A stretch of 64,000 nucleotides of DNA from assembly GCA_043825735.1 (NCBI GenBank), contig JBDRRP010000108.1, forward strand, positions 1 through 64,000, given 5' to 3'. This DNA comes from Pseudomonadota bacterium. GTDB taxonomy: Bacteria; Desulfobacterota; Desulfobacteria; Desulfobacterales; JBDRRP01. The notes under the pieces are model-generated. The model had not been told where the DNA came from, did not search any database, and saw only the letters and a program-made list of their open reading frames with translations. Positions 366 through 16,921 of the stretch are shown in pieces. The stretch's first letter is position 1; each line of letters opens with the position of its first letter. A program made the position numbers and the translations under genes.

Positions 366-875
366 CTATTCGTCCAGATCGATGATAACGGTGCCGTCAA
401 CGTCGCGCTTGACATCTGAGATGCCGGGGCATTGTTTTTCCAGGGTTTCCAGTGTGGTGGCCTGACGGTCAATGATCTTTTTGAGGCGCAGGTTTTCCCG
501 GTGCAGCTCGCGCTGCTGGAGGCCCTGGCGGATGGTCACCGTGAGATCGACGATGTTGCAGGGTTTTGTGAAGAACCGGTAGATTTCACCCTCGTTGATG
601 GCACGGATGGCCGTGTCGAGGCTGGCATGGCCGGTCAGGATGATGCGGATGGTGTCGGGATAGCGGTTGCGAACGATGCCGAAGAACTGGGTCCCGGACA
701 TCCCGGGCATCTTCTCGTCTGAGACCACCACGTCAACCGGCTGGGTCGCAAGGATCTTGAGAGCGGCCTCTGCCGAAGGGGCGCTGAAAATGGCATAACG
801 CTCCCGTGTCAGGGCTTCTTCAAGAAGCTCCCGGATAATGGCCTGGTCGTCGACAATAAGAACGGAGTAGGGCAT
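366..875 (-). CDS. Stand-alone response regulator (receiver domain plus short coiled-coil tail)
   Basis: VLIVDD...VVVSDEKMPGMSG...LTG...FTKP receiver motifs. ATG at 875, 2 nt after the pilB-like stop. Confidence 0.9.
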   Translation of the reverse strand: MPYSVLIVDDQAIIRELLEEALTRERYAIFSAPSAEAALKILATQPVDVVVSDEKMPGMSGTQFFGIVRNRYPDTIRIILTGHASLDTAIRAINEGEIYRFFTKPCNIVDLTVTIRQGLQQRELHRENLRLKKIIDRQATTLETLEKQCPGISDVKRDVDGTVIIDLDE

Positions 876-877
876 AT

Positions 878-3238
878 CTAAGTCACACAAACCCGCCTGA
901 TTTCATGGATATCGGTCAATCCGGCGAACATTTTTATGATGCCGTCCTGCTTGATGGTGGTCATGCCTTCACTGGCTGCCTGCTCAAAAAGCGCGTCCGC
1001 AGGCGCTTCCTTTTTGATCATGCGCTTTAGCTCCTTGGAGCCTTCCATGAGTTCATGAGCACCGAGGCGCCCCCGGTAACCGGTGTTGTTGCAATCCTCG
1101 CACCCCACAACCTTGAAAACCTCCATGTCCTTGGTGTGGGTGATGCCGGTGGCGGCAAATGCCTCTTTCCCATAGTCCTTCTCGTACTCGGCGAACTCCT
1201 CTTCATTGGGATGAAATTTCTTTTTGCATTTTTTACACAACCGGCGCATCAGGCGCTGTGCCAGAACTCCCAGGAAGGCGTCGGAGAAGTTGAGCGGGTT
1301 GAGCCCCATATCAAGCAGTCGAGTCACGGTTTCCGGTGCACTGTTGGTGTGCAGGGTGGAAAAGACCAGATGCCCGGTGAGAGAAGCCTCAACACCGATG
1401 GAGGCGGTTTCTTGATCGCGCATTTCACCGATCATAATGACGTCCGGATCGGCCCGCAGAAAGGCCCGCATGATACGGGCGAAATCGAGTCCGATTTTTG
1501 GTTTTGCCTCAACCTGCCGCAACCCCTGCTGGGTGATTTCCACCGGATCTTCGGCAGTCCAGATCTTGATGCCGGGCTTGTTGATGTGGCCAAGACAGGC
1601 GTGCAGCGTCGTCGTCTTTCCAGAACCGGTGGGCCCCACCACCAGCACCAGACCATAGGGTTGCTGGATGATTTTTTTCATGATGGTGAGGTTCCGGTCG
1701 TTGAGCCCCATGTCGTCAAGTTTCATGGCACCGGATTCAGCCAGGATGCGCAGTACGGCGTCTTCAAAACCGCCGGCGGTGGGCAGGGTGGCCACCCGCA
1801 GTTCGAAGCCCTTGATCCCCTTGCGCTTGAATTTTATCTTGCCATCCTGTGGAAGACGCCGCTCGGCGATGTCCAGGCCGGACATGATCTTAATCCGCGA
1901 CATGATGGCCCGGGCATTGGTGTTAGGTACCTGAAGCACTTCCTGGCAGACACCGTCAATGCGATAGCGGATACCGGTCTTTTTTGATACCGGTGATGGC
2001 TCGATATGAATGTCGGAGCAGTTTTTTCGGTAGGCATTGATGAGAATCTGATCAACCATGCGCACGATTTTCCCCGAAGACTCGTCGACCTGTTCATAGC
2101 CTTCCTCGAGCGCCTCCTCTTCCTCCTCAAAATCGATATCCGGCATCATATCGAATTCATCATCAGCCTCTTCATCTGAAAGGTCTGCTTGGTCTTTCTT
2201 TTCATCGTAAAAGTGCCGGATGATCTTTTCGATGTCCTCTCGAATGCCAACCATATAGTTGATCTTCTTGGCGTTCAGAAGGCCGGGAATCGGATCCGTC
2301 TTGAGAAGATCCGAAGGGTCGTCAATGAGAACGTCGACGCTGTGTAGTTCCCATGCGAGGGGAACCCAGTTGTTTTGAACCAGGAAGGTCTTTTTGAGTT
2401 TCCGTATCAGTTCGTACGGGACTTCAAGGCTTTCACTGTATTCACGGAACGGGCAGCGGTAATAGAGGCTCAGTGATTTGCCAATTTCTTCTTTTTTCGC
2501 GCCAAAGCTTTCGATCAACACGGATTCGACGCTCCGGTTGCTCTTTTTTGACATTCCCAACGCGTTTTGCAACTGGGACGTGTTCACCCGTTTGGTCTTT
2601 AGCAGGTAGTCGTATCGCGAGTCAAATTTTCCGGAAGTAAACGCATCTTGAATGTACTTGTCGATATCTGGAAAATCAGGAGAGAGTTCCTTGACCGATT
2701 CATAAAACTCCAGTGCCAGATCTTTGTGGTCTAGCTTGTCCAGTTCCTGCCCTAGGTGGAACTTGATGGGCGCTACCTTGTCGTCTGTAATGTTGTTTTC
2801 GTGAATTATTTTTTCGATCTGATCGATGGCACGGGAAGGTGAGTGCAGGGCAAAAAGGCTTTCTGCCATCCCCGGCATAATCTCATCCGGAGAGAACTCC
2901 AGGGCGAAGAGTTTGGTGTATTCTCCAACCGCCTCCTTGTGGAGCCCTAATTCTCTGAAAGACGAGGCACTGCTGAGTATCTCACGGGCGTTGTCCGCCG
3001 ATTCCCAACTGCTGGTGAGAATGGAGGCGTCCTCGGAGGAGAGGGTGACTTCGTCGTCCTTTTCATAAACGTCAAGGACCTCTTTCAGCTCGGAGATTTC
3101 CTGGGTGATGGCGTTTTGCAGATTGCTTTCTAATGGGGAAACCAGCGGCTGCAATTCTTCAAGCACCAGAAGCGCTTCTGAATAGAGACCGTGTTTACGA
3201 TAGGCTTGAGCTTCTTTGAATTTAACCTGAATGTCCAT
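878..3238 (-). CDS. pilB: PilB/GspE-family secretion ATPase with N-terminal TPR-like region
   Basis: Walker A GPTGSGKTTT, Asp box EDPVE, Walker B IMIGEMRD, His box HLVFSTLH, tetracysteine CKKC..CEDC, SDIHIEP and DIAERRLPQDG motifs. The first ~200 aa are helical and TPR-like. Confidence 0.88.
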   Translation of the reverse strand: MDIQVKFKEAQAYRKHGLYSEALLVLEELQPLVSPLESNLQNAITQEISELKEVLDVYEKDDEVTLSSEDASILTSSWESADNAREILSSASSFRELGLHKEAVGEYTKLFALEFSPDEIMPGMAESLFALHSPSRAIDQIEKIIHENNITDDKVAPIKFHLGQELDKLDHKDLALEFYESVKELSPDFPDIDKYIQDAFTSGKFDSRYDYLLKTKRVNTSQLQNALGMSKKSNRSVESVLIESFGAKKEEIGKSLSLYYRCPFREYSESLEVPYELIRKLKKTFLVQNNWVPLAWELHSVDVLIDDPSDLLKTDPIPGLLNAKKINYMVGIREDIEKIIRHFYDEKKDQADLSDEEADDEFDMMPDIDFEEEEEALEEGYEQVDESSGKIVRMVDQILINAYRKNCSDIHIEPSPVSKKTGIRYRIDGVCQEVLQVPNTNARAIMSRIKIMSGLDIAERRLPQDGKIKFKRKGIKGFELRVATLPTAGGFEDAVLRILAESGAMKLDDMGLNDRNLTIMKKIIQQPYGLVLVVGPTGSGKTTTLHACLGHINKPGIKIWTAEDPVEITQQGLRQVEAKPKIGLDFARIMRAFLRADPDVIMIGEMRDQETASIGVEASLTGHLVFSTLHTNSAPETVTRLLDMGLNPLNFSDAFLGVLAQRLMRRLCKKCKKKFHPNEEEFAEYEKDYGKEAFAATGITHTKDMEVFKVVGCEDCNNTGYRGRLGAHELMEGSKELKRMIKKEAPADALFEQAASEGMTTIKQDGIIKMFAGLTDIHEIRRVCVT

Positions 3239-3270
3239 GGTGGTACCACGAATACATTAGCGGTATCGTC

Positions 3271-3570
3271 TCACAGCGACAACACGGCGTTTGATTTGAG
3301 CCGTACCATGGCGATGGTGGCGTCCCATCCCATGATGACGACCAGACAGCCCAGTTCGGATTGCCGGACATAGACGCGTTGATGCGCAAATACCAGCTCT
3401 CCTTCCTTGATTTTGGAAAACCGGGGGACAACGGCGGACCAGTTGAAATCGACAAAACTGTCGGGTGGTGGTGAGCGGAAGGCATGATAGAGCATCTTGC
3501 CACTCTGAGAGAAAAACAACACTCCCTGGACATCGTCGATATCAAGGATTTCCTGTAACTCAGCTTTCAT
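3271..3570 (-). CDS. Small Roadblock/LC7-like protein (paralog of 7134..7484)
   Basis: Helix-DDVQGVLFF-G..; beta-strands and C-terminal MVRL helix as in MglB-type folds. Aligns with 7134..7484. Confidence 0.65.
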   Translation of the reverse strand: MKAELQEILDIDDVQGVLFFSQSGKMLYHAFRSPPPDSFVDFNWSAVVPRFSKIKEGELVFAHQRVYVRQSELGCLVVIMGWDATIAMVRLKSNAVLSL

Positions 3571-3615
3571 GATCGCATTCCGTTGATGCTCCTTTGGCGG
3601 GCGTTTATGCCCGAA

Positions 3616-4662
3616 TTATTGGCGCCACTCGTAAAGCAGCTGTCGAATCACGTCTCTAGGGCACTCTTCGGAAAACCGTAAAACGGCCGGCGGGGTGTCT
3701 CCAATGAGAACCACCCGCCGGTTGTTACCGAAGTTCAAATAACAGCTTTTCAAGTCCCCCGCTCCGACGGCGTCGCCCAGATTCTGGATACTGCCGAGAA
3801 ACGACTTCCAGCTGTCATCCATGTCCATCGGCTTGATGCATGGGGTATCGGCGACAATGGCGGCGATGCGGTTTTGCAGTACTGACGGGCGATTGGGCGA
3901 TGTCGCCATCTGCGGCTTTTCCGGTGTCGTCGACACCGTCATCGATGGCACTTCGGGCTCCATAAAGTCATCGGGTGTCGCGCTGGATTCATCCTTCTGG
4001 CGCATCGCGTCGAAGAGTATGGCCTGCAACTCGCCGGGGATCAGTTTCTCGCTGATAACACAGGTGTCTTCAATCGACAGCGACACTTTATCCCACCCGA
4101 GGATCTCGTGGGCCACTTCCAGTCCGTGCAGGTCGCTGATCCGGGCGTCCATCAGCTGCCCTTGTTTGAAAAAGAGCACGCCGGGTTGGTTGTTATCCTT
4201 GTTGATGACACGCAGGGTGCAGGTTTTTTGCTCCATTTCAACCAGTTGGATGTACATCTCCAGCGAAACGGTCTGAAGGATACCGCCTTCTCTTTCCTTG
4301 GCCAGAGCGGCAAGGATCTTTTTGGCCAGATCTTCAACGACGAACGGTTTTACCATAAAACCGGCAGCACCGCGTTCAAGTACCTTTTTTTGAGATTGGG
4401 GGGTTGCGAATGCGGTTAGAACGATCACCGGGATATCCGGATACTTTGCAGACAGGTAGGCGAGTAGCGCGAAACCGTCCATTTCCGGCATTTGAAGATC
4501 GGTGACCACCAGGGAGACGGAATTTTCTTTCAGCACCCTGACGGCGGCGGTGCCGTCTTCAGCCAGTAGTGTGGAGAAATGCTCGGAGTGTGCCTCGAAT
4601 TTTTTTTGAATCAGCCGGCGTAAAATCCGATCATCATCTACGATCAGGACATTGCGTTTCAT
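3616..4662 (-). CDS. Response regulator with DUF4388/PATAN-like domain and degenerate Roadblock-like C-terminus (copy 2)
   Basis: REC motifs (IVDDD, VTDLQMP, KP), then GGILQTVSLEMYIQLVEMEQKTCTLRV..GVLFFKQGQLMDA typical of DUF4388/PATAN. Confidence 0.85.
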   Translation of the reverse strand: MKRNVLIVDDDRILRRLIQKKFEAHSEHFSTLLAEDGTAAVRVLKENSVSLVVTDLQMPEMDGFALLAYLSAKYPDIPVIVLTAFATPQSQKKVLERGAAGFMVKPFVVEDLAKKILAALAKEREGGILQTVSLEMYIQLVEMEQKTCTLRVINKDNNQPGVLFFKQGQLMDARISDLHGLEVAHEILGWDKVSLSIEDTCVISEKLIPGELQAILFDAMRQKDESSATPDDFMEPEVPSMTVSTTPEKPQMATSPNRPSVLQNRIAAIVADTPCIKPMDMDDSWKSFLGSIQNLGDAVGAGDLKSCYLNFGNNRRVVLIGDTPPAVLRFSEECPRDVIRQLLYEWRQ

Positions 4663-4749
4663 CACATCCCCTCGACAACGTCACCCGGAACACCCGGTGA
4701 TGCCGCGTTTTATGTTTGGTCGATGCCACCTGTGGCATTGGCATCGGGT

Positions 4750-4777
4750 ATTATAGTAAGTTTTTCCTTTAATTCAA
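4750..4777 (-). promoter_or_regulatory. Putative sigma70 promoter (TTGAAT-16-TATAAT)
   Basis: Minus strand reads TTGAAT taaaggaaaaacttac TATAAT, ~90 nt upstream of the 4662 start. Confidence 0.6.
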
Positions 4778-4823
4778 ACCTTTTGTTGGCGCCTAAACAC
4801 TGGCGTTGAGATCCGGGCGATCG

Positions 4824-6203
4824 CTACGATGCGCCGTCCGCAGCCGGATCGTGGGTTGGCGTGCATACTGCGCGCACATCGGCGACAGTGCGCAGATCCT
4901 GCCAGGTTACGAAACCGATATCGGCCCTGACCACATAAGCGCTGGTGTAAGTGCGTCGGTCGCAGGACCACAGATTGCGCTGGGCGCGGCCGAACACTGC
5001 CGGGGCACAGAAATGGTGTTCATCCGTGGGCGCATAGGATAGCAAGGTAATCAGTTCGTTGACGGTCGGCAATCGCCATTGCGTTGTGTCACCAAGGCGG
5101 CTCTGATTGAGATGGGCAACATAGCGGTGAGCATCCGACCATGAAATGGGACGCGGTGAGCCGTTCCGTTGCCATAACAAATGATTTGACGGATCGACCA
5201 CTAATTCATCGCCGAGTGTCCGAAACGGCAACTTGTGGTAAGTCCGTGGTTCCCATAAAGGGGTCGTAGAAAACAGCGTCTGGGCTTTTTGGATATCCAG
5301 GACCTTGGTGGGGTGGCATCGGGGTTGGGTGGGCGACTGGCGCGCAGGTGGTTCAGTGGCGGATTCACTCAGCCGGCAGATGCCAGGTTTGGCGCTCTCC
5401 CATTCAGCGGCAAGCTCGGTCAAGGCAGTACGCATCTGCGCTGCCGATGCGAAGCGCTTCTGCGGTGACGGTTGAAGCGCCTTGTTGAAAAACGAAGACC
5501 ATGCGTCGTTCAGAAACGGGTTGATGGTCGTTGCCGCGGTCGTGGTCAACTCGGGGAGCTGACCGGTCAGCATACGAAACAGCATGACACCGGTCGAATA
5601 CAGGTCTGATCGGGCATCGGCGCAGTCCGGGTTAGCTGCTTGCTCGGGGGCGGAATAGTAAGGAGACCCTGCCTTTAGTGTCGGCGGCCCTGGAAACAGT
5701 TCGCCGCGAAGTCGCGACAGACCGAAATCGCCGATTTTGATCTGGTCATCCGCGGTGATCAGGATGTTGAACGGTTTTATATCTCGGTGTACGATGCCCG
5801 CTGCATGCATAGCCGACAATCCGTCCAGTACCTGGGTGGTGAAGTCAATGGCCGTATCCAGAGGGATGAGACGCGTGGGGTCTTCAACGCGCCAGGTTTC
5901 ACCGATCAGTGTCCCCAGGGTGGTGGCATGGTATTCCATTGTGTAAAAGACATAGTCTTCTGTCTCCTCGTAGTCCCAGACGTCCACCACATGTCGGTGC
6001 CTGAGCAGCGACATGGCCGTGGCCTCGGTGATGAACATGTCCTTGGCCTGGGATGGCGTCATCAGTTTATAAAGCAGGGGGTTGGGATGAAGCTGTTTAA
6101 GGGCGACCAAACGATGGATGGTTGGGATTTCGGCCAGGAACACCCTGCTCATGCCGCCGCGTCCGAGAAGCCCGCGAATGATGTATTTGCCAATCGTTTT
6201 CAC
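4824..6203 (-). CDS. Hanks-type Ser/Thr protein kinase with C-terminal DUF1566 (Lcl-like) domain
   Basis: LGRGGMSRV, VALK, HRDIKPFN, DFG, YSAPE, DLYSTG. C-terminal VVD..LLWQ..W..A..WRLPTVNELITL motif. Confidence 0.9.
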   Translation of the reverse strand: MKTIGKYIIRGLLGRGGMSRVFLAEIPTIHRLVALKQLHPNPLLYKLMTPSQAKDMFITEATAMSLLRHRHVVDVWDYEETEDYVFYTMEYHATTLGTLIGETWRVEDPTRLIPLDTAIDFTTQVLDGLSAMHAAGIVHRDIKPFNILITADDQIKIGDFGLSRLRGELFPGPPTLKAGSPYYSAPEQAANPDCADARSDLYSTGVMLFRMLTGQLPELTTTAATTINPFLNDAWSSFFNKALQPSPQKRFASAAQMRTALTELAAEWESAKPGICRLSESATEPPARQSPTQPRCHPTKVLDIQKAQTLFSTTPLWEPRTYHKLPFRTLGDELVVDPSNHLLWQRNGSPRPISWSDAHRYVAHLNQSRLGDTTQWRLPTVNELITLLSYAPTDEHHFCAPAVFGRAQRNLWSCDRRTYTSAYVVRADIGFVTWQDLRTVADVRAVCTPTHDPAADGAS

Positions 6204-6354: not shown

Positions 6355-7080
6355 TTAGAGCAGACGGGCAGCATGGGCTTTGGGCAGCCCGGCCGCGATG
6401 ACCTTTCGGGCGGCGGCCTCGCGGTCATAGGGGATATAGCGGACATCCAGCATCCTGGAGTCCGTATCAAAAATGACGTATTTGGCATCCCGGTTGCCGT
6501 CTCGGGGCTGTCCTACACTGCCAATATTGATGATGTAATGCTTTTCACCATCGAGCAACACCCCGCCGCAAGGCAGCTCCTGGCGTCTGACGGTGTTTGT
6601 GCCAACGGTGACCATTTCAAGCATGTGGGTGTGCCCGACGAAACAGATCGTGCATCCGGTGGATGTCAGCCCTTTTCGGATATCGTCATCGCTGGCTTGG
6701 AACAGGTAGATAGTGGGAGAATCCGTCGGGAATCCGTGGACAAACCAGCACCCGTCGCTGTGAAGACTGGTCGGCAGGGTGTGCAAGTACCCGATGGCGT
6801 CGTCACTGAGATGCGCCACCGTGTGCATTATAGATTTTCGGGCGAGGGGATTAAACCATTTGCGCACACCCGAGTCGATGACCGCCAACTCATGATTGCC
6901 GATGATGGAGGGAATGGATGTTGCTTGGAGACGGCGCAGCACCGCTTCCGGCTCTGCGCCGTAACCGATGTTGTCTCCCAGGGAAATGATCTTATCGACT
7001 GATGCGGAAGAGATATCCGATAGAACGGATTCAAAGGCGTCAAGATTCCCGTGGATATCCGAAATAACTGCCAGACGCAT
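6355..7080 (-). CDS. Calcineurin-like metallophosphoesterase
   Basis: ISDIHGN, LGDNIGYG, GNHE, VHG, VGHTH, NIGSVGQPRD motifs. ATG at 7080 with GGAG RBS. Confidence 0.88.
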   Translation of the reverse strand: MRLAVISDIHGNLDAFESVLSDISSASVDKIISLGDNIGYGAEPEAVLRRLQATSIPSIIGNHELAVIDSGVRKWFNPLARKSIMHTVAHLSDDAIGYLHTLPTSLHSDGCWFVHGFPTDSPTIYLFQASDDDIRKGLTSTGCTICFVGHTHMLEMVTVGTNTVRRQELPCGGVLLDGEKHYIINIGSVGQPRDGNRDAKYVIFDTDSRMLDVRYIPYDREAAARKVIAAGLPKAHAARLL

Positions 7081-7133: not shown

Positions 7134-7484
7134 CTATCGTTTGAAAAAACGCCCGATTCCCTTGGGCTTTTCGGATTCACTGGAGAGGGTGGAAAGTAGA
7201 ATGTCACAATTCAATCGGACCATGGATACGAGGGCGTATCGGCCCATAACGATGATGACAAATCCTTTTGCGAACTTTCGAATGTATAGTCGGATATTTT
7301 CATACATCAACTCCACTTCGACCACTGTGGAAAGACCTTGTATCAGTTTATGGAAATCCTGTTCAGTAAACGGTTTCGCCGGTGCGGTGGCGAAACTCTG
7401 GAACACGATTTGGCCGTTGGTACCCACAACGATGACACCTTTGACGTCATCCAGAGACAGTATGTCTTTGAACTGTTCTTTCAT
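7134..7484 (-). CDS. Small Roadblock/LC7-like protein with basic/aromatic C-terminal tail
   Basis: ILSLDDVKGVIVV..NG..LYIR..VIIVMG..MVRLNCD. Ends KPKGIGRFFKR. Confidence 0.65.
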   Translation of the reverse strand: MKEQFKDILSLDDVKGVIVVGTNGQIVFQSFATAPAKPFTEQDFHKLIQGLSTVVEVELMYENIRLYIRKFAKGFVIIVMGRYALVSMVRLNCDILLSTLSSESEKPKGIGRFFKR

Positions 7485-7521: not shown

Positions 7522-8580
7522 CTAATCGCTAAGGACATCGATTACCTTGTCTCTTGGACAGCCATCATTAACGGCCAGCACGATTGGCTCAGGGGCGGGC
7601 ACAACGATATAATCGGTGGGGCCTCCCGACTTGGCGAACACCAGTTTCAACGGACCGGCGCCAAAAATAGGGCCGATGGTTGCAGCCATGCGACAAAATG
7701 GCTGCCACGAAGCATCCGGATAGACGTCTTCGAGACCTTTCCCGTTGGGAGAAACTGACTGATATTTGCCTCTGATGACTTCCATGGGATTGAGGCGAGG
7801 GGATGGCACATCTTCCAGGAGATCGATCTCCTCGATGGTGTCATCCATTTCGACAGGAAGGTTCTCCGGTTCCGCTTCGGCGAAATCAGTCTCGCTGGCT
7901 CCGGCTTCGTCTTTCATGCGCATCGCATCAAAGAGGATGGCCTGGAGTTCACCGTCGATGCGTTTTTCCTTTATCGGGCACTCATCCTGTATGGATAGAG
8001 ATACTTTTTCCCATGCGAGAACCCGGTAGGCGGCGGTCACGCCCTGTTGGTCGCCCACCCGTGCATCCATCAATTCGCCTTTACTGAAAAACAGTACGCC
8101 TAATAGCCCATTTCGTTTATTGGACACCCGTATCGTGCAGGTTTTCTGTTCCATTTCAATAAGTTGGATAAACATTTCCAGGGGCACGGTCTGAAGTGTG
8201 CCGCCCTCTGACTGTTTCCGCAGGGTGGAGATGATTTTCTCAGCAAGGTCTTCCACTACGAAGGGTTTCTCGATGTACCCGGCGGCGCCGCCGTCAATGA
8301 CCGTTTTTTTGGACGATGGGGAGCTGTACGCGGTCATAATGATGACTGGGATATCGGGGTAGGTGACCGACAGATGGGCCAGCAGCGCCAGCCCGTCCAT
8401 CTCCGGCATTTGCAGATCCGTCACCACCAAAGAGATACTGTTTTTTTTCAGAACATGGACGGCTTCATTGCCGTTGCCAGCTGTCAGGGTGACAAACGTG
8501 TCGGCATAGGCGCTGAACTGCTTTTTTATTGCGCGGATCCATATATGGTCATCGTCAACGATGAGGATGTTCTTTACCAC
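7522..8580 (-). CDS. Response regulator with DUF4388/PATAN-like domain and degenerate Roadblock-like C-terminus (copy 1)
   Basis: REC motifs (IVDDD, VTDLQMP, EKP) plus GGTLQTVPLEMFIQLIEMEQKTCTIRV..GVLFFSKGELMDA. Paralog of 3616..4662. Confidence 0.85.
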   Translation of the reverse strand: MVKNILIVDDDHIWIRAIKKQFSAYADTFVTLTAGNGNEAVHVLKKNSISLVVTDLQMPEMDGLALLAHLSVTYPDIPVIIMTAYSSPSSKKTVIDGGAAGYIEKPFVVEDLAEKIISTLRKQSEGGTLQTVPLEMFIQLIEMEQKTCTIRVSNKRNGLLGVLFFSKGELMDARVGDQQGVTAAYRVLAWEKVSLSIQDECPIKEKRIDGELQAILFDAMRMKDEAGASETDFAEAEPENLPVEMDDTIEEIDLLEDVPSPRLNPMEVIRGKYQSVSPNGKGLEDVYPDASWQPFCRMAATIGPIFGAGPLKLVFAKSGGPTDYIVVPAPEPIVLAVNDGCPRDKVIDVLSD

Positions 8581-8614: not shown

Positions 8615-9646
8615 TCATATATCCAGATCTAATAAAGATATGATTTCCTTGTATCTATCGGTCCATGGCCTCAGCGCCGTGATTAATTGCTGGGTCAACC
8701 CCATTTCTTTGGCAAGGTCCCGGACGGACTCCACGACTCCCATAATGACAGTCGCTTTCGACGCGGTTCCGTTATAGCGGATAGCGCCATCGGCATATTC
8801 GAACTCAGCGGCGAATGGGTCGAGGAAATCGTATTTTTCAGCCTTGGAAATGAATTTTTTACGCAACATCGCATGGAATTCACTGCGATAGCGTTTTACT
8901 CCCATGGCCGTTTCCTCGAACACATTGAGAAACTCTTCGAGCATCTGAATATCATCAGGGGCATCTTCGGATTTCTCATCATCAGACGTATTGGCGGATT
9001 CTGCCGGTGTCGCATCTGTAGCCTCTGCGCCATCCGCTCGTGGACTAGGGGATGCGCCCAAGTCGACTTTATACACGCTGAACGTGCCGCCGCCGGAGTC
9101 TGCTTTTTTAAGCAATTCATTCAACAGCGCGGTCTCGGTGCGCAGGTCGTTGTCGAGCCATGCGTAGGTGCCGCCCAGAATATGACCGAAGTTGAGAAAG
9201 ATGCACCCGGTGGACTCAGTGCCGCCGATACAGGCGTCAATATAACCGGTGAGTTTTTCAGAACGCATCTTCTTGATAAGTGCTTTCAGATCGGTGAATT
9301 CAGTGGAAAGATTCGTGTATAGCGGCGTTGCTTCTGCAAGGTTGGCCCAGAAATGCACCATGTCTGAATCGATATGGAAGACCGACACGTTGAAATTGGA
9401 ATTTGGCGCATGATCGATCAGATGCTGGATGGCATCGGGGCCCTTAACGGTGGTGGCCTTGGATTCAAAAATGCCTGACAACGGAATGTGGTCGTCAAAA
9501 AATATCACCCCAGTGGCCGCCGGGGATTGAAACAGGATGCCACCTGATTCGAATTCACCGTTGAAGTGTTCGATGAGTCTATTAATATTCAAGTAGTAGC
9601 TATTCATCCCGGAAATGACGGGCTTGTCCTTAGGAATTACGACCAT
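8615..9646 (-). CDS. Uncharacterised protein with two tandem PATAN/DUF4388/DUF2226-like repeats
   Basis: Internal repeat: PVISGMNSYYLNINRLIEHF..SGGILF..TGVIFFDD vs PLYTNLSTEFTDLKALIKKM..TGYI..TGCIFLNFG. Strong AAGGAGG RBS. Confidence 0.65.
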   Translation of the reverse strand: MVVIPKDKPVISGMNSYYLNINRLIEHFNGEFESGGILFQSPAATGVIFFDDHIPLSGIFESKATTVKGPDAIQHLIDHAPNSNFNVSVFHIDSDMVHFWANLAEATPLYTNLSTEFTDLKALIKKMRSEKLTGYIDACIGGTESTGCIFLNFGHILGGTYAWLDNDLRTETALLNELLKKADSGGGTFSVYKVDLGASPSPRADGAEATDATPAESANTSDDEKSEDAPDDIQMLEEFLNVFEETAMGVKRYRSEFHAMLRKKFISKAEKYDFLDPFAAEFEYADGAIRYNGTASKATVIMGVVESVRDLAKEMGLTQQLITALRPWTDRYKEIISLLDLDI

Positions 9647-9712: not shown

Positions 9713-10903
9713 TTAGCGTTTGCGGCGCAGGCGCATGATGGAAAGACGCAAGCTGTCCTGCATTCTGGCAACGGCATCGGCGAGACTGCCGAGCTCATCC
9801 TGCGATTTGATCGTGATCTCTGCGTCCAGTTCTCCGACACTGATGCGATCTGCCACATCGGTGAGCATTTTGATCCGTTTGACCAGGGCGTGCCCGTAGA
9901 AAGTGACGATGGCCCCGATAATAATCAGCGTCGCCAAGGTAATGGCGAAGTTGGTGTTCTTGGTCCGTACCGCTTCCTGGCTGGCAAATTCTTTCATCTG
10001 GTTTAACGGGGCGGTGAACTCGCGAACATAGACGGCCGCAGCGATGCCGTAGTCGGTACCTCGTATCGGCGTCATCACCGCGAACTGTTCCCTTTTGGAT
10101 CCATCCAGATCCTTCCACAGATAGTAGCCTTTTCGGGACAAATTCTGGCCTTTTTCCAGCGGCTCGATGATTTTCTTAAGAAGGTTCCAGTCACTTCCCA
10201 GTGCCGCGCGCATGGACTCGGAAACCTGTTGCCCGTTGAGGCTGCGGTTTGGGTTGGCCAGGATGGTGAATGGCCCTGTTGCGTAGAGGAATGTAAAACC
10301 GGCGGTTCCGACTTTCTGAACGGCAAGACTGTTCAAAATCTGATCGTCGGCGAAGTTTTCCCTCCGGAGTCCCGGGGTGGACTCGAGATATAGCTGCACT
10401 TGGCGGGCAACCGCCTTACTAAGGTCGTCGACATTCTGCTCGGTGAGCGCGGTAACCATCTCAGCGCTTTGGTTGACGAGCGTGGAAACCATCATATTGG
10501 TTTGCCGCTGGGAAAAATAGCCCGATGCGGCCATGATTCCGAGAGGGACGACCAGGAAAAGGACAATCATTTTCGCCCTGAGTCCCAACCCCCGGCGTTT
10601 ATTTTTTGCCGAAGTCTTTATGGACGCTGCGGCGGGTTTATCCATTAGCGACAGCGATTGTTCGAAGGGAGAGATGGGCGCTTCAGCCGTTGTTGATACG
10701 AAGTCATCATCGGCCGACATTACCTCTGGAAGTTCCAGCTCTTCCAATTCATCGGGTGTATCGGCTTCTGTCTTATTGACGATGATAATGAAGCCGCAGT
10801 TTCGGCATTTTGTCTTGGCAACGTCGCCTTTGATATTGCGCAGTTTGTCTTTGGGGATGTGGTATAGCTTTCCGCATTCTTCGCAAATGATGGGTATGGT
10901 CAT
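9713..10903 (-). CDS. Membrane sensor-like protein: zinc ribbon (MJ0042-like) - TM - Cache-like - TM - HAMP, no output domain
   Basis: CEECG..CRNCG; TM1 MIVLFLVVPLGIMAASGYF; VQKVGTAGFTFLY..ANPN Cache-like motif; TM2 FAITLATLIIIGAIVTFYG; HAMP RIKMLTDVADRISVGELD..DELGSLADAVARM; ends RLRRKR. AAGGAG RBS before ATG 10903. Confidence 0.82.
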   Translation of the reverse strand: MTIPIICEECGKLYHIPKDKLRNIKGDVAKTKCRNCGFIIIVNKTEADTPDELEELELPEVMSADDDFVSTTAEAPISPFEQSLSLMDKPAAASIKTSAKNKRRGLGLRAKMIVLFLVVPLGIMAASGYFSQRQTNMMVSTLVNQSAEMVTALTEQNVDDLSKAVARQVQLYLESTPGLRRENFADDQILNSLAVQKVGTAGFTFLYATGPFTILANPNRSLNGQQVSESMRAALGSDWNLLKKIIEPLEKGQNLSRKGYYLWKDLDGSKREQFAVMTPIRGTDYGIAAAVYVREFTAPLNQMKEFASQEAVRTKNTNFAITLATLIIIGAIVTFYGHALVKRIKMLTDVADRISVGELDAEITIKSQDELGSLADAVARMQDSLRLSIMRLRRKR

Positions 10904-10962: not shown

Positions 10963-11715
10963 TCATTCCTCTCCCAGCATGGCTCGGAGTTCCGTTTTAA
11001 GGGCTTCGAACTCGTCTCTGATTACTTTGCGGATTTCCGTTAGCATCGTTTCCATACTGACCAGTTCGTCCGTGGATACCGCGGATGGTCCACTCCCTGA
11101 CGACGGTTGCTTGGTCGACGGCCCTGATGGCGCAATGGGCCTGGATACTTCCGGCGCACGAAAGACAGTATCTGTTTCCGGCTTGGTGTGTCGAATCCGC
11201 TGCTTCAAGCTCTTAAACTGCCGGACTTCATTGGACAGAATTTTCTTTTTTTCGAGATCCGAGATCGTGGCATTCAACAGCACTTGTTCGAACCCGGCGT
11301 AGACCGAATGAAGCATTTTGATGGAGTCGGGGTGAGCTTTGACTTTTTTAACACTGATGTACTTGCCGATGGACCCTAACAACTGGAGAAACATGAACGG
11401 CAGTTTGTCATTTTGGTATATTATCTTTAAACGGTTAATCTCACTGATAAGGCGTTCCAGTGTGGTGTCGGTGATTTCCCAGTCCAGAGACAAAATGGTG
11501 GCATTAAGATCGAGCAACGGGGAATCTGCAGAAGCGGCAGGGGACGGCAGACGCTTTGCGGCGGGAGGATCGTCATGCGCATGCAGATCGTCAATCTCGA
11601 TCATGCCGGTATCGGAATCAGTTTCAGGGACTGCTACGATATCTTCCTGTTCTGAAAACAGATCGTCAAGGCGGTCCTGAAGTTCCGATGATATTTTTTT
11701 TCCGTCGTCCGTCAC
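10963..11715 (-). CDS. Hypothetical helical protein (candidate scaffold)
   Basis: 250-aa ORF 4 nt downstream of mglA. Short N-terminal helix, acidic linker, helical core (LSLDWEITD), Pro/Ser linker and C-terminal coiled helix. Confidence 0.75.
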   Translation of the reverse strand: MTDDGKKISSELQDRLDDLFSEQEDIVAVPETDSDTGMIEIDDLHAHDDPPAAKRLPSPAASADSPLLDLNATILSLDWEITDTTLERLISEINRLKIIYQNDKLPFMFLQLLGSIGKYISVKKVKAHPDSIKMLHSVYAGFEQVLLNATISDLEKKKILSNEVRQFKSLKQRIRHTKPETDTVFRAPEVSRPIAPSGPSTKQPSSGSGPSAVSTDELVSMETMLTEIRKVIRDEFEALKTELRAMLGEE

Positions 11716-11719
11716 CTGT

Positions 11720-12334
11720 TCACCCTTTCGCGTCCAAGCGCTTTTCCAAGGAGGCTACCGTTAAAGAAATGGCCTTTTTCATGGTTTCAACGACATTGTC
11801 TCCCTTTAACGCACTGGCAGGGAAACTGGGGGCTTTCAACTGTCGGTTCAAGTCGTTTTCGAGTACATCCTCCGGCAACAGGGGTATGCCTTCATCCGCA
11901 AGATCGCGTTTGTTGTACTGAAAGACCAATGGTATTTGAAAAATATTCTTGTCGAAGGTGGTGAGATTGTCCTGAAGATCCTTGAGCGCCAGAATATTCA
12001 TTTTTTGCCGCAACGCCATGGAGTCGGCAACGAAAACAATACCGTCGACACCGCGCAGGACCAGTCGGCGCGTGGCCGCATATTTCACCTGACCCGGAAC
12101 AGTATAGAACTGCATTTTAATATTGTACCCTTTGATAACTCCGATATCCATGGGCATGAAATCGAAAAATAACGTACGATCACCGTAAGTCTTGATAGTC
12201 GTCAAGTTACCTTTTATCCGTTTGCGAAACTTGCTGAAAATATATTCCAGGTTGGTGGTCTTGCCGCCTCTGCCTGGCCCGTAATAGACCAGTTTAACCT
12301 GAACTTCTTTTTTCTTCGGGTTGATAAGCGCCAA
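11720..12334 (-). CDS. mglA: MglA-family Ras-like small GTPase
   Basis: KLVYYGPGRGGKTTNL (G1), DRTLFFDF (intrinsic Arg), YTVPGQ (G3), NKRD (G4). TTG start with GAGG RBS. Confidence 0.93.
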   Translation of the reverse strand: MALINPKKKEVQVKLVYYGPGRGGKTTNLEYIFSKFRKRIKGNLTTIKTYGDRTLFFDFMPMDIGVIKGYNIKMQFYTVPGQVKYAATRRLVLRGVDGIVFVADSMALRQKMNILALKDLQDNLTTFDKNIFQIPLVFQYNKRDLADEGIPLLPEDVLENDLNRQLKAPSFPASALKGDNVVETMKKAISLTVASLEKRLDAKG

Positions 12335-12774: not shown

Positions 12775-12829
12775 CGATCGTACCTCATTCTTGTATTAAG
12801 AGTTTGAGTCATGCTGCCCCAGAAAACAC

Positions 12830-12865
12830 TGACGGCACGGTGCGTATGCCGATTCCGTCCCGTCA
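12830..12865 (-). terminator. Hairpin with U-rich tail in the motB-mglB spacer (possible terminator/attenuator)
   Basis: TGACGGCACGG (12830-40) / CCGTCCCGTCA (12855-65), 10/11 paired. Followed on the minus strand by GTGTTTTCT. Confidence 0.4.
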
Positions 12866-13024
12866 AGGGGGGCGGTGTGAGCAACCGGTTTTTGGGCTCC
12901 AAGGCGACCTTCATCGCCACAGAAATGCCTATCATATTCAAATTGTTAGATCAATACCATTGTTGATGGTATCGCCCAAGTATTACGAGATCCCGGAGTC
13001 GAGTCGGTAGGTGGTGTGACCAGG

Positions 13025-13810
13025 CTAATGGGCAATGGGGCCCTCTGGAACACCGGCCTGAGGAAAGGCGCCAAGAATGATCTCCACGCGGCGGTTCTGC
13101 TGCCGGCCCTGAGTGGTATCATTTTCGGCCAGAGGGCGAAATTCGCCAAAACCCATGGTAGCCAGACGGCTGGGGTCAAGGCCGTTTTTTTGAATGAGGT
13201 ATTCGGCCACGGTGGCAGCCCGGGCAATAGACAGGCCAAGGTTCGATTGGTATCGCCCCCCACGGAGCGGAACATTGTCGGTATGACCGGCGATGATGAT
13301 GCTCTCATTGGTGCTGCGCAAGGCATCACCAATTTTATCCAAGAGCGGCATCATTTCCTGCAAAATCTCTGCTTTGCCGGATTCAAATGTACTTTCTCCC
13401 ATGAGTCGAATGGTGACGTTGTTGTTGTTGACATCCACATCAATCAGATCTTTCATCCCTTTGAAATTGGTTTCAACCGCCTTTTTGAGTTCCCGCCCGA
13501 TTTCCTCACGCATCTGCATGACAACGAATTCTTCCCGCTCTTGGGTTGGAATCAATTCCTGGTCGAAATCCTTGGCGATCATCTTCAACCCTTTGGGGGC
13601 TTCGAAGGCTTTTGTCTTTCGTTGAACACCGAAGGCCTTTGCCAGAGATCCAGCCACTTCTTTGTATTTGGCACGATCCATCTCTGAAAAACTGAGCAAT
13701 AGTACAAAGAAACAAAGCAACAGGCTCATGAGATCGCCAAATGTGACCACCCATTCGGGGGCACCTTCCTGGATAATCGGTGCAGGGCCTTCATTTGATT
13801 GGCTACTCAT
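13025..13810 (-). CDS. motB: Stator subunit B (MotB/PomB-like) with OmpA-like peptidoglycan-binding domain
   Basis: WVVTFGDLMSLLLCFFVLLLSFS TM with conserved Asp; GHTD and NRRVEI motifs. Confidence 0.92.
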   Translation of the reverse strand: MSSQSNEGPAPIIQEGAPEWVVTFGDLMSLLLCFFVLLLSFSEMDRAKYKEVAGSLAKAFGVQRKTKAFEAPKGLKMIAKDFDQELIPTQEREEFVVMQMREEIGRELKKAVETNFKGMKDLIDVDVNNNNVTIRLMGESTFESGKAEILQEMMPLLDKIGDALRSTNESIIIAGHTDNVPLRGGRYQSNLGLSIARAATVAEYLIQKNGLDPSRLATMGFGEFRPLAENDTTQGRQQNRRVEIILGAFPQAGVPEGPIAH

Positions 13811-14591
13811 TGCCGGGACCTCCGGCGGTCGGCTGTTGACCCCACTTTTCGCGTTCTTTGGGAGGCAGGAATATCTTCAGCGATTCCTCGAGCACCAACG
13901 GTGCAACGCCTCTGCTGATACCGATGGCCGCTTCAACGATAATGCGCTTATTGTTTTGCTCTTCCTCACTTCGCAGTTCGAGTTTTTCTGCAATCGGGAT
14001 GCACACCAGATTGGCGATCAGCGCGCCATAAAGCGTCGTGAGCAGTGCGACAGCCATGGAAGGGCCGATACTGGCAGGATCCGACATGCTGGAGAGCATC
14101 TGCACCAGGCCGATCAGGGTTCCGATCATACCGAACGCCGGGGCTGAAGATCCCATCCCCTTGAAAATTTTCTGACCGATGGTATGCCGTGCCACGGTGA
14201 GTTGAATGTCTTTCTTAAGCATGTCTTCAATGAGCCCTTCATCATAGCCGTCCGAAAGATAAGACAGTGCCTTGGCGGAAAAGGGGTCACTGGGCGCTTC
14301 TTTTTCAAGGGCGATCAGCCCTTCCTTTTTGGCGATTCGTGTAAATGAGACCATCTCTCTGATGATCTGTTCAGAAGGGAGCATTTTCACTGTGAAGGCC
14401 TTTATGACGACCTTTATCGTATTGATGACATCACTCATGCTGTGCTTGATAAAGGCTGTGGCGAAAGTGCCACCGACGACGATGAGCAGACTGGGGATGT
14501 TGAAAAATACCATGGCGCTGCCACCGATGATGATGGCTGATAGAACCAGTGCGGTCCCGCTGAATAGTCCAATGATGGTTGCGATATCCAT
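13803..14591 (-). CDS. motA: Stator subunit A (MotA/PomA-like)
   Basis: MDIATIIG, KEGLIALE, APAFGMIGTLIGLVQML, AVALLTTLYGA. Overlaps motB by 8 nt. Confidence 0.92.
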   Translation of the reverse strand: MDIATIIGLFSGTALVLSAIIIGGSAMVFFNIPSLLIVVGGTFATAFIKHSMSDVINTIKVVIKAFTVKMLPSEQIIREMVSFTRIAKKEGLIALEKEAPSDPFSAKALSYLSDGYDEGLIEDMLKKDIQLTVARHTIGQKIFKGMGSSAPAFGMIGTLIGLVQMLSSMSDPASIGPSMAVALLTTLYGALIANLVCIPIAEKLELRSEEEQNNKRIIVEAAIGISRGVAPLVLEESLKIFLPPKEREKWGQQPTAGGPGNE

Positions 14592-14592
14592 G

Positions 14593-15765
14593 CTATCTCC
14601 CTGATGATGATTTGTGCACCGACACGGACTTTTCGATGGTGCCTAACATTGCGTATGTCTTCAGTTTCTCAATGTTTTCGCCTGTAATGACGGTATCCTG
14701 TGGCATAAGGAGCGTGCCGTTTTTGCGGCGGATGCTGCAGGCCAGGAGCATGCCGATCTGCACATCTTCTACGGGGATGACCATGTCGTTTCTTTTTTCT
14801 GCGGCAATGATTCTTTCTGTGTTGATCGTCAGCAACTGGTCCACGATGGCCGATTCCAGCTGATAGCCGCGCTGGCGATTCAGATGGTCCGCAACGTCGG
14901 TGAGCGCAATGCCCCATTTGTTCACGAGGCTGTCGTAGGCCGAGGCGCCGGCGATGATCCTGGCGATTATGGGGATGTCGTTTCCGGACAATCCGTCGGG
15001 AAACCCCCTGCCGTTCACTTGTTCGTGGTGCCTCCTCACCAATTTAGCGACCGGCTGCAGTGCCGGTATTTCGCTCAAAATCATTTCGCCTTGAATGGGG
15101 TGCGTGCGATAGTGGGCGCGCTCGTCACCACTCATCTCCGTTGTGCGTTTACCCAGTGCCGACGAGGACATCCCCACCATACCGATGTCATGGAGCAGGC
15201 CGGTCGCTTCAACTAGATCATAATCAGTCTCATCGACCTCGGGCATGTTGCGGGCAACGATCAACGCTACCTCGGCCACGCGCCGGCAATGGCCACCAAG
15301 ATCTTCGTTGAATACCTCCAGCAGATTTGTGAACATTCGGATGGTCTGGTAGAAGTTGCTCTGGATAACGTCGATGCGTTTGTGAAGCTCCCTTTCAAGG
15401 GTGATGATCCGGCCGCCGATTTCGACACGCGCTCGCAGTTCGTCAAAGTCCAGTGGTTTGACCAGATAGTCGTCGATACCGCCTTCCAGCCCACGGACGA
15501 TATCCTGGCGCGCGTTCTGTGCGCTGACAATGATGAGGTACTGGTATTTGGAACTGCTGGTGTTGCGGATGCGTTGACACAGTTCAAGGCCGTTGAGACC
15601 GGGCATGACCCAGTCTGTGATCACGATGTCCATGTGTCGGGTCTGAGCCAGATCCCAGGCTTCCAAGCCGCCAGGAGCGGTAAATACGGTATGGCCCCAG
15701 GAACTCACATGTTTTTTCATGAGCTGGAGCGTGACCGCGTCATCATCGGCAACTAATATGTTCAT
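14593..15765 (-). CDS. Response regulator with HD-GYP-type phosphodiesterase domain
   Basis: REC (LVADDD, ITDWVMP, VKP); HCRRVA, LLHDIG, HP..G, HHEQVNGRGFPDGL. ATG at 15765. Confidence 0.88.
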   Translation of the reverse strand: MNILVADDDAVTLQLMKKHVSSWGHTVFTAPGGLEAWDLAQTRHMDIVITDWVMPGLNGLELCQRIRNTSSSKYQYLIIVSAQNARQDIVRGLEGGIDDYLVKPLDFDELRARVEIGGRIITLERELHKRIDVIQSNFYQTIRMFTNLLEVFNEDLGGHCRRVAEVALIVARNMPEVDETDYDLVEATGLLHDIGMVGMSSSALGKRTTEMSGDERAHYRTHPIQGEMILSEIPALQPVAKLVRRHHEQVNGRGFPDGLSGNDIPIIARIIAGASAYDSLVNKWGIALTDVADHLNRQRGYQLESAIVDQLLTINTERIIAAEKRNDMVIPVEDVQIGMLLACSIRRKNGTLLMPQDTVITGENIEKLKTYAMLGTIEKSVSVHKSSSGR

Positions 15766-16132
15766 AAGACAATTCCCGCTAAATGAAATATCGGTTAAAA
15801 TGGTTCCGACTTGAGCCGCGAAAGCGCCGTTCACCAGCCGGGGGCGTGCATGACGGGCGCCAAACGGATGACGAAACGGTGTCACATGGCGCAGCCATAC
15901 GCTGGTCTGAGGTCGCGTGGCACGCGATCCGCCAATGCTTCAGGTGTGCCTCAGAATGACAACCGCATGGCTGCGATGCGATCGCGTTCCGAATCAATGC
16001 AAAAATGATACCACACAAAGCTATTGATAATATTCTTGAATGATTGGAAATTTATTACAAGGTGCACCTGTCTGCATTTGAGAAGGACATGTCAAATTAC
16101 TGGCGGAGACGGGAAAGCGAACGGTGGGAGGG

Positions 16133-16921
16133 TTATCTGAACAGTGTCAGATACCAGTGAAACAGTTCATCGCCGTAAAACAGATAAGTAACGGCGCCAA
16201 TGGCAAGAAAAGGTCCGAAGGGGATTCTGAGACGCCCATCGAGGCGTCGTCCGATCGTCATTTGGAGGAGCCCGGCCACGGTACCGGTAACGGATCCAAC
16301 GAAAATGGTCATGATGACGCCTTTCCAGCCGAGAAAGGCGCCGATCATTGCCAGCAGTTTGATGTCGCCGCCCCCCATGCCTTCCTGCTTTTTAATGGCG
16401 ATATACATCCAGGCCACCAGATACAGTGACCCGCCGCCGACCAGGGCACCCAGCAGTGCGTCGACGATTCCCATTTTCGGCAGGATGGCGGCGGAAAGGA
16501 CACCGATCAGAATGCCTGGCAAGGTAATGACATCGAAAATGCGCTGGGTGTCGATATCGATGAAGGTGACAACGATCAGCGCGGCTATGAAGACAAAGTA
16601 CACCAAGGCCGGCAGGGTGACGCCGAATCTGACTACCGTGGCCGCCGCTGCCAGTCCTGTAATGGCTTCCACCAGAGGGTATCGCGGTGAGATCGTCCCG
16701 CGGCAGTGACGGCATTTGCCCATCAGTATCAAGTAGCTTACAATGGGGACGTTGTCGTAGAACCGAATCGGATGGCTGCAGGAAGGGCAATGGGACGGCG
16801 GCCACGCCAAAGAGCGCCCACCGGGAAGTCGGTAGATACAAACGTTGAGAAAACTGCCAATGCAGGCGCCAAAAAGAAATCCAAGGATGGCGAACACCGT
16901 CGTGGGTGGCAGGTACACCAT
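16133..16921 (-). CDS. pilD: Prepilin peptidase/N-methyltransferase
   Basis: GSFLNVCIYRLP, SHCPSC..GKCRHC, FIDID, GMGGGDIKL, IPFGPFL. ATG 16921 with AAGGA RBS. Confidence 0.93.
   Translation of the reverse strand: MVYLPPTTVFAILGFLFGACIGSFLNVCIYRLPGGRSLAWPPSHCPSCSHPIRFYDNVPIVSYLILMGKCRHCRGTISPRYPLVEAITGLAAAATVVRFGVTLPALVYFVFIAALIVVTFIDIDTQRIFDVITLPGILIGVLSAAILPKMGIVDALLGALVGGGSLYLVAWMYIAIKKQEGMGGGDIKLLAMIGAFLGWKGVIMTIFVGSVTGTVAGLLQMTIGRRLDGRLRIPFGPFLAIGAVTYLFYGDELFHWYLTLFR

Follow-up and report, generated by a model that had tools for sequence, protein, structure and literature searches.

MglA-type small GTPases cycle between GDP and GTP under the control of MglB, and genes for the two proteins were reportedly placed near PATAN genes already by Makarova in 2006. 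In Myxococcus xanthus, MglA acts on the pilus motor PilB via the TPR protein SgmX, by a mechanism that the available text of the pertinent papers describes as unknown (PMC11580455, PMC7668184). In Synechocystis, PATAN domains bind PilB1, and the accessible part of that study calls PATAN regulation of pili beyond cyanobacteria open (10.1101/2021.06.11.447907). The passages and table rows available from a survey of MglA proteins likewise report mglA and mglB near PATAN genes, describe widely varying Group 1 neighbourhoods and list, in Table S2, Group 1 MglA in Desulfatibacillum, Desulfobacterium, Desulfococcus, Desulfobulbus and Syntrophobacter (PMC4316618, Wuichet and Sogaard-Andersen). Here, we analysed an mglBA locus in the first 64,000 nucleotides of contig JBDRRP010000108.1 (assembly GCA_043825735.1, Desulfobacterales), a stretch that we call the window. 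Eight of its 17 co-oriented genes form a conserved version of the MglA polarity switch that seems not to have been described, and we assign a probability of about 0.6 to the reading that this switch controls an accessory type IV pilus extension ATPase whose pilus machine is encoded elsewhere.

Comparing gene neighbourhoods across Desulfobacterota, the check proposed in an earlier note on this DNA, revealed a core of eight genes recurring across Desulfobacterales: mglB, mglA, the gene for a helical protein termed H250, a membrane sensor gene, the gene for a tandem PATAN-like protein termed H343, a REC-PATAN gene, a small Roadblock gene and a gene for a PilB-type ATPase with an amino-terminal TPR-like domain (TPR-PilB). 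A first set comprised 40 MglA loci chosen from 77 matches and a second the best 80 of 437 loci encoding an H250 relative, mostly from Desulfobacterales; since the two sets may overlap, the second was counted alone and provides the counts of core and accessory genes given here. Wherever enough flank was available, both GTPase-module genes preceded H250: mglA in all 74 loci with 700 bp or more, and mglB in all 67 loci with 1300 bp. Downstream sequence of 9 kb was available for 37 of the 80 loci, nine of which (22 of all 80) show a second layout described below. The remaining 28 encode the sensor in 26, H343 in 25, REC-PATAN in 26 and the small Roadblock in 25 cases, and an intact TPR-PilB within the fetched 9-10 kb in 17, with one more (L042) carrying it in pieces. 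The core order is maintained at 26-45% protein identity, and because it recurs across many families of the order it exceeds what chance would give. The conserved module of sensor, Roadblock/GTPase, PATAN proteins and PilB-type ATPase anticipated by the earlier note is thus supported. Two genes common in relatives are absent from the window locus, a small winged-helix-like gene (24/28 loci) and a PAS-PAS gene (18/28); the latter (e.g. L011:7398-8459) lies between H343 and REC-PATAN and encodes a protein that matches HisKA weakly and lacks a kinase domain.

MglA of the locus carries the catalytic set of the family, comprising the P-loop, the switch threonine T54, the intrinsic arginine finger R53, Q82 and the NKRD motif, and matches MglA structures at E-values of 1e-47 to 2e-49 (phmmer). 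Residues G21, R53, T54, Q82 and K186 are invariant in all 82 H250-linked MglA homologues, and both hallmarks of Group 1, the motifs and a coupled mglB Roadblock gene, are present. The MglB family profile matches MglB structures at E 1e-23, with an alignment reaching residue 130 of the 160-residue chain. The protein lacks the acidic carboxy-terminal helix or extension of M. xanthus MglB, and 98 of 100 homologues end no more than 20 residues past the last conserved anchor, versus about 40 in the 6h5b chain. According to the part of the M. xanthus study available, D154 and F157 of this helix, which face K185 and K181, bind MglA at an allosteric pocket, close to L64 and I67 (PMC6785124). The H250-linked MglA proteins keep the K181 equivalent in 82/82 cases, and the K185 equivalent (position 190) is mostly serine.

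These helix-pocket lysines were also tried as a marker of H250-linked MglA and rejected, as a second MglA class keeps them too. The host copy of this second mglA (L032:9919-14052; host contig C87, about 78000-82000) has no adjoining mglB. The gene order is TPR-domain gene, mglA and PATAN-cNMP gene, followed in most relatives by a PilZ gene, located between uvrBC/mdh and purC, and this order recurs in about a dozen fetched loci. The carboxy-terminal beta domain of the TPR protein beside it has no Pfam match.

The gene most tightly linked to mglA is H250, 4 bp downstream, to which the earlier note gave no special weight. Its product matched no family in Pfam or NCBIfam and nothing meaningful among PDB sequences. 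The model (pLDDT, predicted local distance difference test, 78) shows an acidic amino-terminal helix, a five-helix bundle spanning residues 68-177 and a carboxy-terminal helix, which may resemble RomR or PopZ. The acidic helix bears an LDDLF motif with the same Asp-x-x-Phe spacing as the MglB helix, and a motif like it is present in 76 of 93 near homologues. LDDLF-like motifs also occur in 15 of 17 distant proteins (33 occurrences versus 3.8 in shuffles), with a pattern defined on the near homologues and a shuffling that ignores helix periodicity; one of the 17 is the product of the gene after mglA in L125 and not that locus' H250-domain protein. Complex prediction for MglA-GTP-Mg with H250(1-40) gave a score of 0.59 versus 0.00 for the best control, with runs agreeing in at least 50% of contacts and a partner pLDDT of at least 54, a result graded weak. 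In the calibration, 116 of the 157 solved pairs passed, as did 2 of 215 mismatched ones; passing scores of 0.60 or below were obtained for only 18 of the 157 solved pairs and for both of these mismatches. Resemblance to the solved complex of MglA with MglB may account for the value. The acidic motifs of H250 resemble the carboxy-terminal helix that this MglB lacks, and H250 is tentatively predicted to bind MglA. With no family name and matches to its domain in 75 of 401 phylum genomes, the H250 family may be a new kind of small-GTPase regulator. In four distant loci (L121-L124), H250-family proteins of 1100-1350 amino acids with two HPt-like bundles are encoded directly after mglB-mglA, and their long acidic tails hold up to five copies of LDxFF-like motifs.

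The membrane protein encoded next matches Zn_ribbon_4 and Cache, both below cut-off, as well as HAMP. It has no output domain, as had been claimed, since the protein ends shortly after HAMP with a short, basic and conserved tail (15-19 residues in 52 measured homologues). Of 53 homologues, 50 keep both CxxC pairs. Elsewhere in the genome (L154:5924-7609, contig C44) lies a second gene for such a sensor together with the partner it usually has, being preceded by a small winged-helix-like gene, 37% identical to a locus copy, of the kind missing from the window locus. Tandem duplicates of this gene pair occur in L045, L048, L049 and L050, and L125 has a fusion of the small protein to PATAN.

For the PATAN proteins, the earlier count of four PATAN-like domains held: two are found by Pfam in the REC-PATAN proteins and two in H343 by model, fold and profile comparison. 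H343 itself has no Pfam match, and its model (pLDDT 86) contains an internal repeat (probability 96%), the second unit of which matches PATAN at 75% and the first at 36%, with reversed controls below 1%. Against PatA_N/DUF2226 proteins the Atlas template modelling (TM) score was 0.80, and among solved structures the best Z was 6.1, with no Foldseek match at E 0.001. At the level of the model, these searches point to the lack of a solved relative and not to a new fold. REC-PATAN keeps the receiver Asp and Lys. Its carboxy-terminal domain was found in 195 representatives and accompanies PATAN in 82 of 84 listed proteins of at least 300 amino acids.

Five Roadblock-like domains had been proposed, three of which stand, MglB by Pfam and the two small proteins weakly. 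The remaining two, at the REC-PATAN carboxy-termini, are doubtful candidates: compared with the small Roadblock family they gave hhalign probabilities of 1-5% (E 0.008 versus 0.5 for the reversed sequence), with no hhalign match to MglB, no Roadblock match in the PDB and no Roadblock link among their relatives. For the small family, all nine PDB matches of the 106-sequence profile were Roadblocks (best E 0.0047), seven of the 106 members matched PF03259 weakly and below cut-off, and direct comparison with MglB by hhalign alone was weak (probability 2-11%). The two small proteins thus appear, weakly but consistently, Roadblock-like. Members of their family are named from the cultured species Desulfobotulus mexicanus and D. 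alkaliphilus.

TPR-PilB, the candidate output, has invariant Walker A and B motifs and four cysteines conserved to at least 90% (23 rows). Its TPR domain is homologous to the stand-alone protein beside the second mglA (probability 98.5%, E 3e-15). Full-length TPR-PilB was found in 25 of 61 genomes of the order, one further partial match being excluded, and H250 in 39; 20 of the 25 genes lie within 10 kb of H250 and two more within about 6 kb of mglA (L169, L171). In an unrooted ATPase-core tree of 38 rows, the 12 TPR-PilB rows form a clade (support 96/99), as do ten rows of a GAF-domain paralogue (99/99), a protein about 50% identical to TPR-PilB over the carboxy-terminal 600 residues and present in most genomes. 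Both groups and four further rows stand apart from the GspE, MSHA-like and canonical PilB rows at 89/93. Two GAF-domain ATPases of the host (L141:6192-8504 on C36; L142:5386-7818 on C107) have no adjoining pilus genes, and the C36 type occurs in most of the 61 order genomes.

The pathway had been thought self-contained, yet the pilus machinery lies on other contigs: pilC-pilS and a probable pilR on C11 without an adjacent pilB, pilMNOPQ on C64, and pilT/U on C125, where a zinc-ribbon protein with a degenerate receiver domain (L150:7396-8061) is encoded directly after pilT and pilU. Such scattering of pilus genes is described as usual for this group in the accessible text of one study (PMC6060248). 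The host encodes eight PilB/GspE-like ATPases, none above the PilB and two above the GspE cut-off. Candidate cognate PilC, PilM and PilQ are thus encoded in unlinked positions, and three further PilB-like ATPases, likewise unlinked, could be the ones that work with them. Control of a pilus by the switch is supported by the host having pilC without adjacent pilB, pilMNOPQ and pilT/U, and no ATPase above the PilB cut-off.

From the observed gene content, domains and conservation we infer the following interactions and output. The eight-gene core would switch type IV pilus extension on and off in a spatially controlled way, with MglA toggling between GDP and GTP under MglB control. H250 would serve as a scaffold whose acidic LDDLF-type helix replaces the missing MglB carboxy-terminal helix and binds MglA, as the complex prediction weakly suggests. 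The zinc-ribbon/HAMP protein could relay a periplasmic signal by binding MglA or MglB, with no enzymatic output, by analogy with the zinc ribbon and linker of GltJ. The PATAN proteins and the small Roadblock would be adaptors, by analogy with cyanobacterial PatA regulators and with MglC. Active MglA might then place or license TPR-PilB, in which an SgmX-like TPR adaptor role would be fused to the motor itself, and TPR-PilB would drive extension as an accessory ATPase of the type IVa pilus machine whose genes are scattered over the genome. The kinase, phosphoesterase, HD-GYP protein, stator and second REC-PATAN/Roadblock pair would be additions made in a small clade.

Several observations weigh against pilus control by this switch. 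The locus counts are descriptive and carry no test, because the loci are related and were selected for their resemblance to H250, so that counts are not independent. Another layout is found in 22 of the 80 loci, mostly mglB-mglA-mglB-H250 followed by a zinc-ribbon/FHA gene, and these loci lack TPR-PilB, as do, for the full-length protein, 18 of the 39 H250 genomes. One TPR-PilB genome (G458) gave no pilM match, and TPR-PilB is not a universal pilus motor, with the full-length protein in only 25 of 61 order genomes versus pilM in 57, while the GAF-domain paralogue may be the housekeeping motor. Given its limited spread and the widespread paralogue, TPR-PilB is more plausibly an accessory than the main motor. 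The best model for it, TIGR02538, is matched at 512 bits, below the cut-off of 675.65, and it falls below the GspE cut-off as well. That model fits Desulfobacterales poorly, since canonical PilB exceeds the cut-off in only 6 of 61 order genomes although pilM is found in 57. The host also encodes type II secretion and MSHA-like clusters. Furthermore, the MglA pocket does not single out H250, because the second MglA class, without adjacent mglB or H250, keeps K186 in 10/14 and K190 in 10/14 members, with both lysines in 10/14. Finally, the Z of 12.5 obtained for the H250 bundle in fold comparison is within reach of helical bundles by arrangement alone.

Rather unlikely, though the likeliest of the alternatives, is that the true unit is mglB-mglA-H250, a general polarity module with swappable downstream cassettes; the ATPase would then serve type II secretion or an MSHA-like machine, or else gliding, the flagellum or division would be what the switch positions. 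The three genes do span the phylum with varied neighbours. Among 20 distant loci hand-picked from the genomes with an H250-domain match, mglB-mglA lies directly upstream of H250 in 16; of the other four, one has mglB-mglA about 5 kb upstream, one is cut at a contig end and two lack mglA. The second-layout loci, including that of Desulfonema magnum (L083), are without TPR-PilB, and the window ATPase passes neither the PilB nor the GspE cut-off. However, distant neighbours of recognisable function are often pilus genes: TPR-PilB or a close ATPase in L125, L129, L134 and L140, pilM to pilQ in L126 (and L138 by eye) and pilC near L124, with TPR or TPR-kinase genes in L135-L137. Grouping of TPR-PilB with the GAF paralogues, apart from GspE and MSHA-like ATPases, speaks against this alternative, though only at the 89/93 support given above, as does the occurrence of H250 in 12 and TPR-PilB in 7 of 24 genomes without an FlhA match.

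The second-layout loci usually adjoin an opposite-strand gene for elongation factor G; they occur in D. magnum and a Desulfococcus record, and this layout could relate to gliding. Among the distant loci, L125 contains a class III cytochrome c-like gene (L125:9476-9985) inside the cluster, after the HAMP sensor gene, and L131 (8118-13379) an H250-like gene without nearby mglA, after kinase, PP2C phosphatase and FHA genes. A 552-residue 'MglA fusion' in L040 was discarded as most likely an over-extended open reading frame in GC-rich DNA.

We consider it improbable that H250 is a working histidine phosphotransfer protein in a phosphorelay that runs to REC-PATAN beside MglA and not through it. The fold search with the H250 bundle returned CheA P1 domains in five of the top eight matches (1i5n: Z 12.5, root mean square deviation 2.7, 110 aligned residues, below the bar for helical bundles and with a designed repeat protein tying for first), and the Atlas TM score to an Hpt cluster was 0.49. 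Conservation of H128 in H250 is at least 90%, the Asp and Lys of REC-PATAN are retained, and 18 of 28 loci add the PAS-PAS protein, with its weak HisKA match and lack of a kinase domain. However, H128 lies where helix 4 starts, just before a proline. At the position that we take to match the CheA phospho-histidine, as mapped with alignment offsets, there is no histidine, and helix B (residues 83-99), where this mapping would put the phospho-accepting residue, has no conserved one. The core lacks a histidine kinase, and H250 travels with mglA and not with REC-PATAN.

Turning from the core to the locus as a whole, the 17 consecutive minus-strand open reading frames described in the earlier note run from pilD to a receiver-domain gene beyond which the contig ends (Table 1). 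Pfam agrees with the domains assigned in that note. Many of the genes are tightly spaced, as had been noted, with 12 of 16 junctions at 66 bp or less and four wider gaps, namely 367 bp after pilD, 250 bp after motB, and 151 and 161 bp flanking the kinase gene.

Table 1 Genes of the mglBA locus in order of position within the window.
Gene product	Position	Strand	Evidence	Status
Receiver domain with short helical tail	366..875	-	Pfam REC	accessory, 2/28 loci
TPR-PilB: N-terminal TPR-like domain, degenerate MshEN, PilB/GspE-type ATPase	878..3238	-	Pfam T2SSE, MshEN, weak TPR	core, proposed output
Second small Roadblock-like protein	3271..3570	-	31% identical to first	local duplication
Second REC-PATAN	3616..4665	-	Pfam REC-DUF4388; 49% identical to first	local duplication
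Ser/Thr kinase with C-terminal Lcl domain	4824..6203	-	Pfam Pkinase, Lcl	accessory, 1/28 loci
Putative calcineurin-like metallophosphoesterase	6355..7080	-	Pfam Metallophos_2	accessory, 2/28 loci
Small Roadblock-like protein	7134..7484	-	weak profile matches	core, 25/28 loci
REC-PATAN (DUF4388) with C-terminal domain	7522..8580	-	Pfam; phospho-Asp site retained	core, 26/28 loci
H343: tandem PATAN/DUF2226-like domains, helical C-terminal domain	8615..9646	-	model and profile comparisons	core, 25/28 loci
Zinc ribbon-transmembrane-Cache-like-transmembrane-HAMP sensor without catalytic output	9713..10903	-	Pfam	core, 26/28 loci
H250 helical protein, proposed MglA-binding scaffold	10963..11715	-	model; starts 4 bp after mglA	core
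mglA, Group 1-type small GTPase	11720..12334	-	Pfam, phmmer to MglA structures	core
mglB, Roadblock GTPase-activating protein, 130 residues	12382..12774	-	Robl_LC7 above Pfam cut-off	core
motB, flagellar-type stator subunit	13025..13810	-	Pfam MotB	accessory, 3/56 loci
motA, best match PomA-like	13803..14591	-	Pfam MotA	accessory, 3/50 loci
Putative REC-HD-GYP-type phosphodiesterase (GFP variant), 1 bp before motA	14593..15765	-	Pfam REC-HD	accessory, 3/43 loci
pilD, prepilin peptidase, 367 bp from next gene	16133..16921	-	Pfam peptidase A24	loosely linked, upstream in 5/35 loci

In line with the claim that the window holds no pilC, pilT, pilMNOPQ or further flagellar genes, Pfam scans of 29 of the 38 listed open reading frames of at least 200 amino acids between 21 and 64 kb gave no pilus or flagellar family at E 1e-12. 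Five of the 28 newly scanned frames in this region had no Pfam match. A promoter scan gave 15 sites versus 13.7 +/- 2.8 in shuffles, terminator-like sites numbered 27 versus 18.1 +/- 4.9, and neither was used for calling transcripts. Rfam gave 0 matches in positions 1-17300. The GC content of the cluster (positions 1-17000) is about 50-55%, slightly below the genome average of 57.5%.

The 17 genes are not one unit, and about half are local additions to this copy. This conflicts with the proposal that all of them form one parts list with Ser/Thr phosphorylation and cyclic di-GMP (c-di-GMP) turnover among its elements, a single pathway coupling both, and the stator, to MglA, e.g. in a trade of swimming for attachment. 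The genes do lie on a single strand throughout, the same-genus locus L001 keeps the whole order up to TPR-PilB, and HD-GYP-motA-motB lies between pilD and mglB in three of the named loci. In related loci, however, the kinase is found in only 1/28, the phosphoesterase and the last receiver gene in 2/28 each, and HD-GYP and the stator in 3 of 43-56; pilD is likewise upstream in a small minority, and the duplicate REC-PATAN copies are confined to the closest loci. A gap of 250 bp separates motB from mglB, and in one genome (G013, 95% complete), which yields neither an FlhA nor a MotA match, pilD stands directly before mglB. Pfam recognises the MshEN fold in TPR-PilB, but where the motif would lie the 23 TPR-PilB rows shown read R/K-Y-D/G/A/S and not RLG, the tandem motif that we take as the c-di-GMP-binding consensus, which weakens a direct c-di-GMP link. 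The host is flagellated, with flagellins, FlhA and FliG on another contig, and since the window motA is the sole MotA match in its genome, motAB are most simply the flagellar stator. Also pilD is the only match of its kind in the genome. We therefore hold a 17-gene pathway to be improbable as well. A chance juxtaposition of unrelated signalling genes would apply only to the flanking and inserted genes and is refuted for the core, whose order is kept across many families at the identities given above.

Regarding novelty, a literature search found no description of this operon, in line with the earlier note; genome papers on Desulfonema or cable bacteria beyond its reach could mention the genes. 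MglA was unmentioned in the literature found on sediment sulfate reducers. The cluster probably decides where pili grow in many sulfate reducers and points to polar pilus control in those of sediments. By combining a GTPase, candidate PATAN adaptors and a TPR-fused PilB, it yields a short list of pairwise tests for activation of PilB by MglA, and cultured carriers exist in Desulfobotulus (small Roadblock family) and Desulfonema magnum (second layout).

Set against described systems, the passages and table rows available from Wuichet and Sogaard-Andersen name only MglA, MglB and PATAN, whereas here an eight-gene order with H250, the sensor and TPR-PilB is found (PMC4316618). Actinobacterial conservons or AGPS (CvnA-CvnB-CvnC-CvnD) likewise join a HAMP membrane sensor, a Roadblock and a small GTPase in one operon. 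According to the portion at hand, the sensor CvnA is a histidine kinase, while CvnD belongs to the Group 2 GTPases and lacks the intrinsic arginine finger, whereas the sensor of this locus is devoid of a kinase domain and R53 is retained in MglA (PMC4316618); no locus protein matched a CvnC-type family. The cyanobacterial PatA-type regulators, which bind PilB1 and PilC in the available text, also unite REC and PATAN in a single protein, the probable target being a PilB-type ATPase (10.1101/2021.06.11.447907), but here REC precedes PATAN, a small GTPase is present and the locus has no chemosensory cluster. Like M. xanthus GltJ, the linker of which binds MglA-GTP and the zinc ribbon of which binds the MglB carboxy-terminal helix in the accessible sections, the sensor is a membrane protein with an amino-terminal zinc ribbon and linker, here encoded two genes from mglA (PMC11135422). 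It has no GYF domain, Cache-HAMP replaces the gliding-motor module, and the likeness is an analogy only.

The M. xanthus polarity module (MglA, MglB, RomR/RomX, RomY and MglC, with SgmX, FrzS and SopA leading to PilB) has several features in common with this locus: MglA is of Group 1 type and has identical catalytic residues, MglB is a Roadblock, a further Roadblock and a TPR element are present, and the likely output is a PilB-type motor. None of the locus proteins was recognised as RomR, RomX, RomY, SgmX or FrzS, and no genome-wide search for these was made; the five Desulfobacterales and Syntrophobacter names looked for are absent from the table text of the RomY paper, itself possibly a subset (PMC9481161). 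In contrast to the M. xanthus module, the partners here sit in one locus, MglB lacks its carboxy-terminal helix, the TPR is fused to the ATPase, and H250, the HAMP sensor and the tandem-PATAN protein match no named family. It is possible, if speculative, that Desulfobacterota have split and re-fused the Myxococcus circuit, the MglB helix having moved to the often multivalent H250, in which one or two HPt-like bundles without the His adjoin up to five motif copies, and an MglA-reading TPR adaptor having been fused to a dedicated pilus motor. If so, the locus would lay out in compact, natural form the way in which a bacterial Ras-like GTPase turns PilB on, for which the mechanism in M. xanthus is described as unknown in the text available (PMC11580455).

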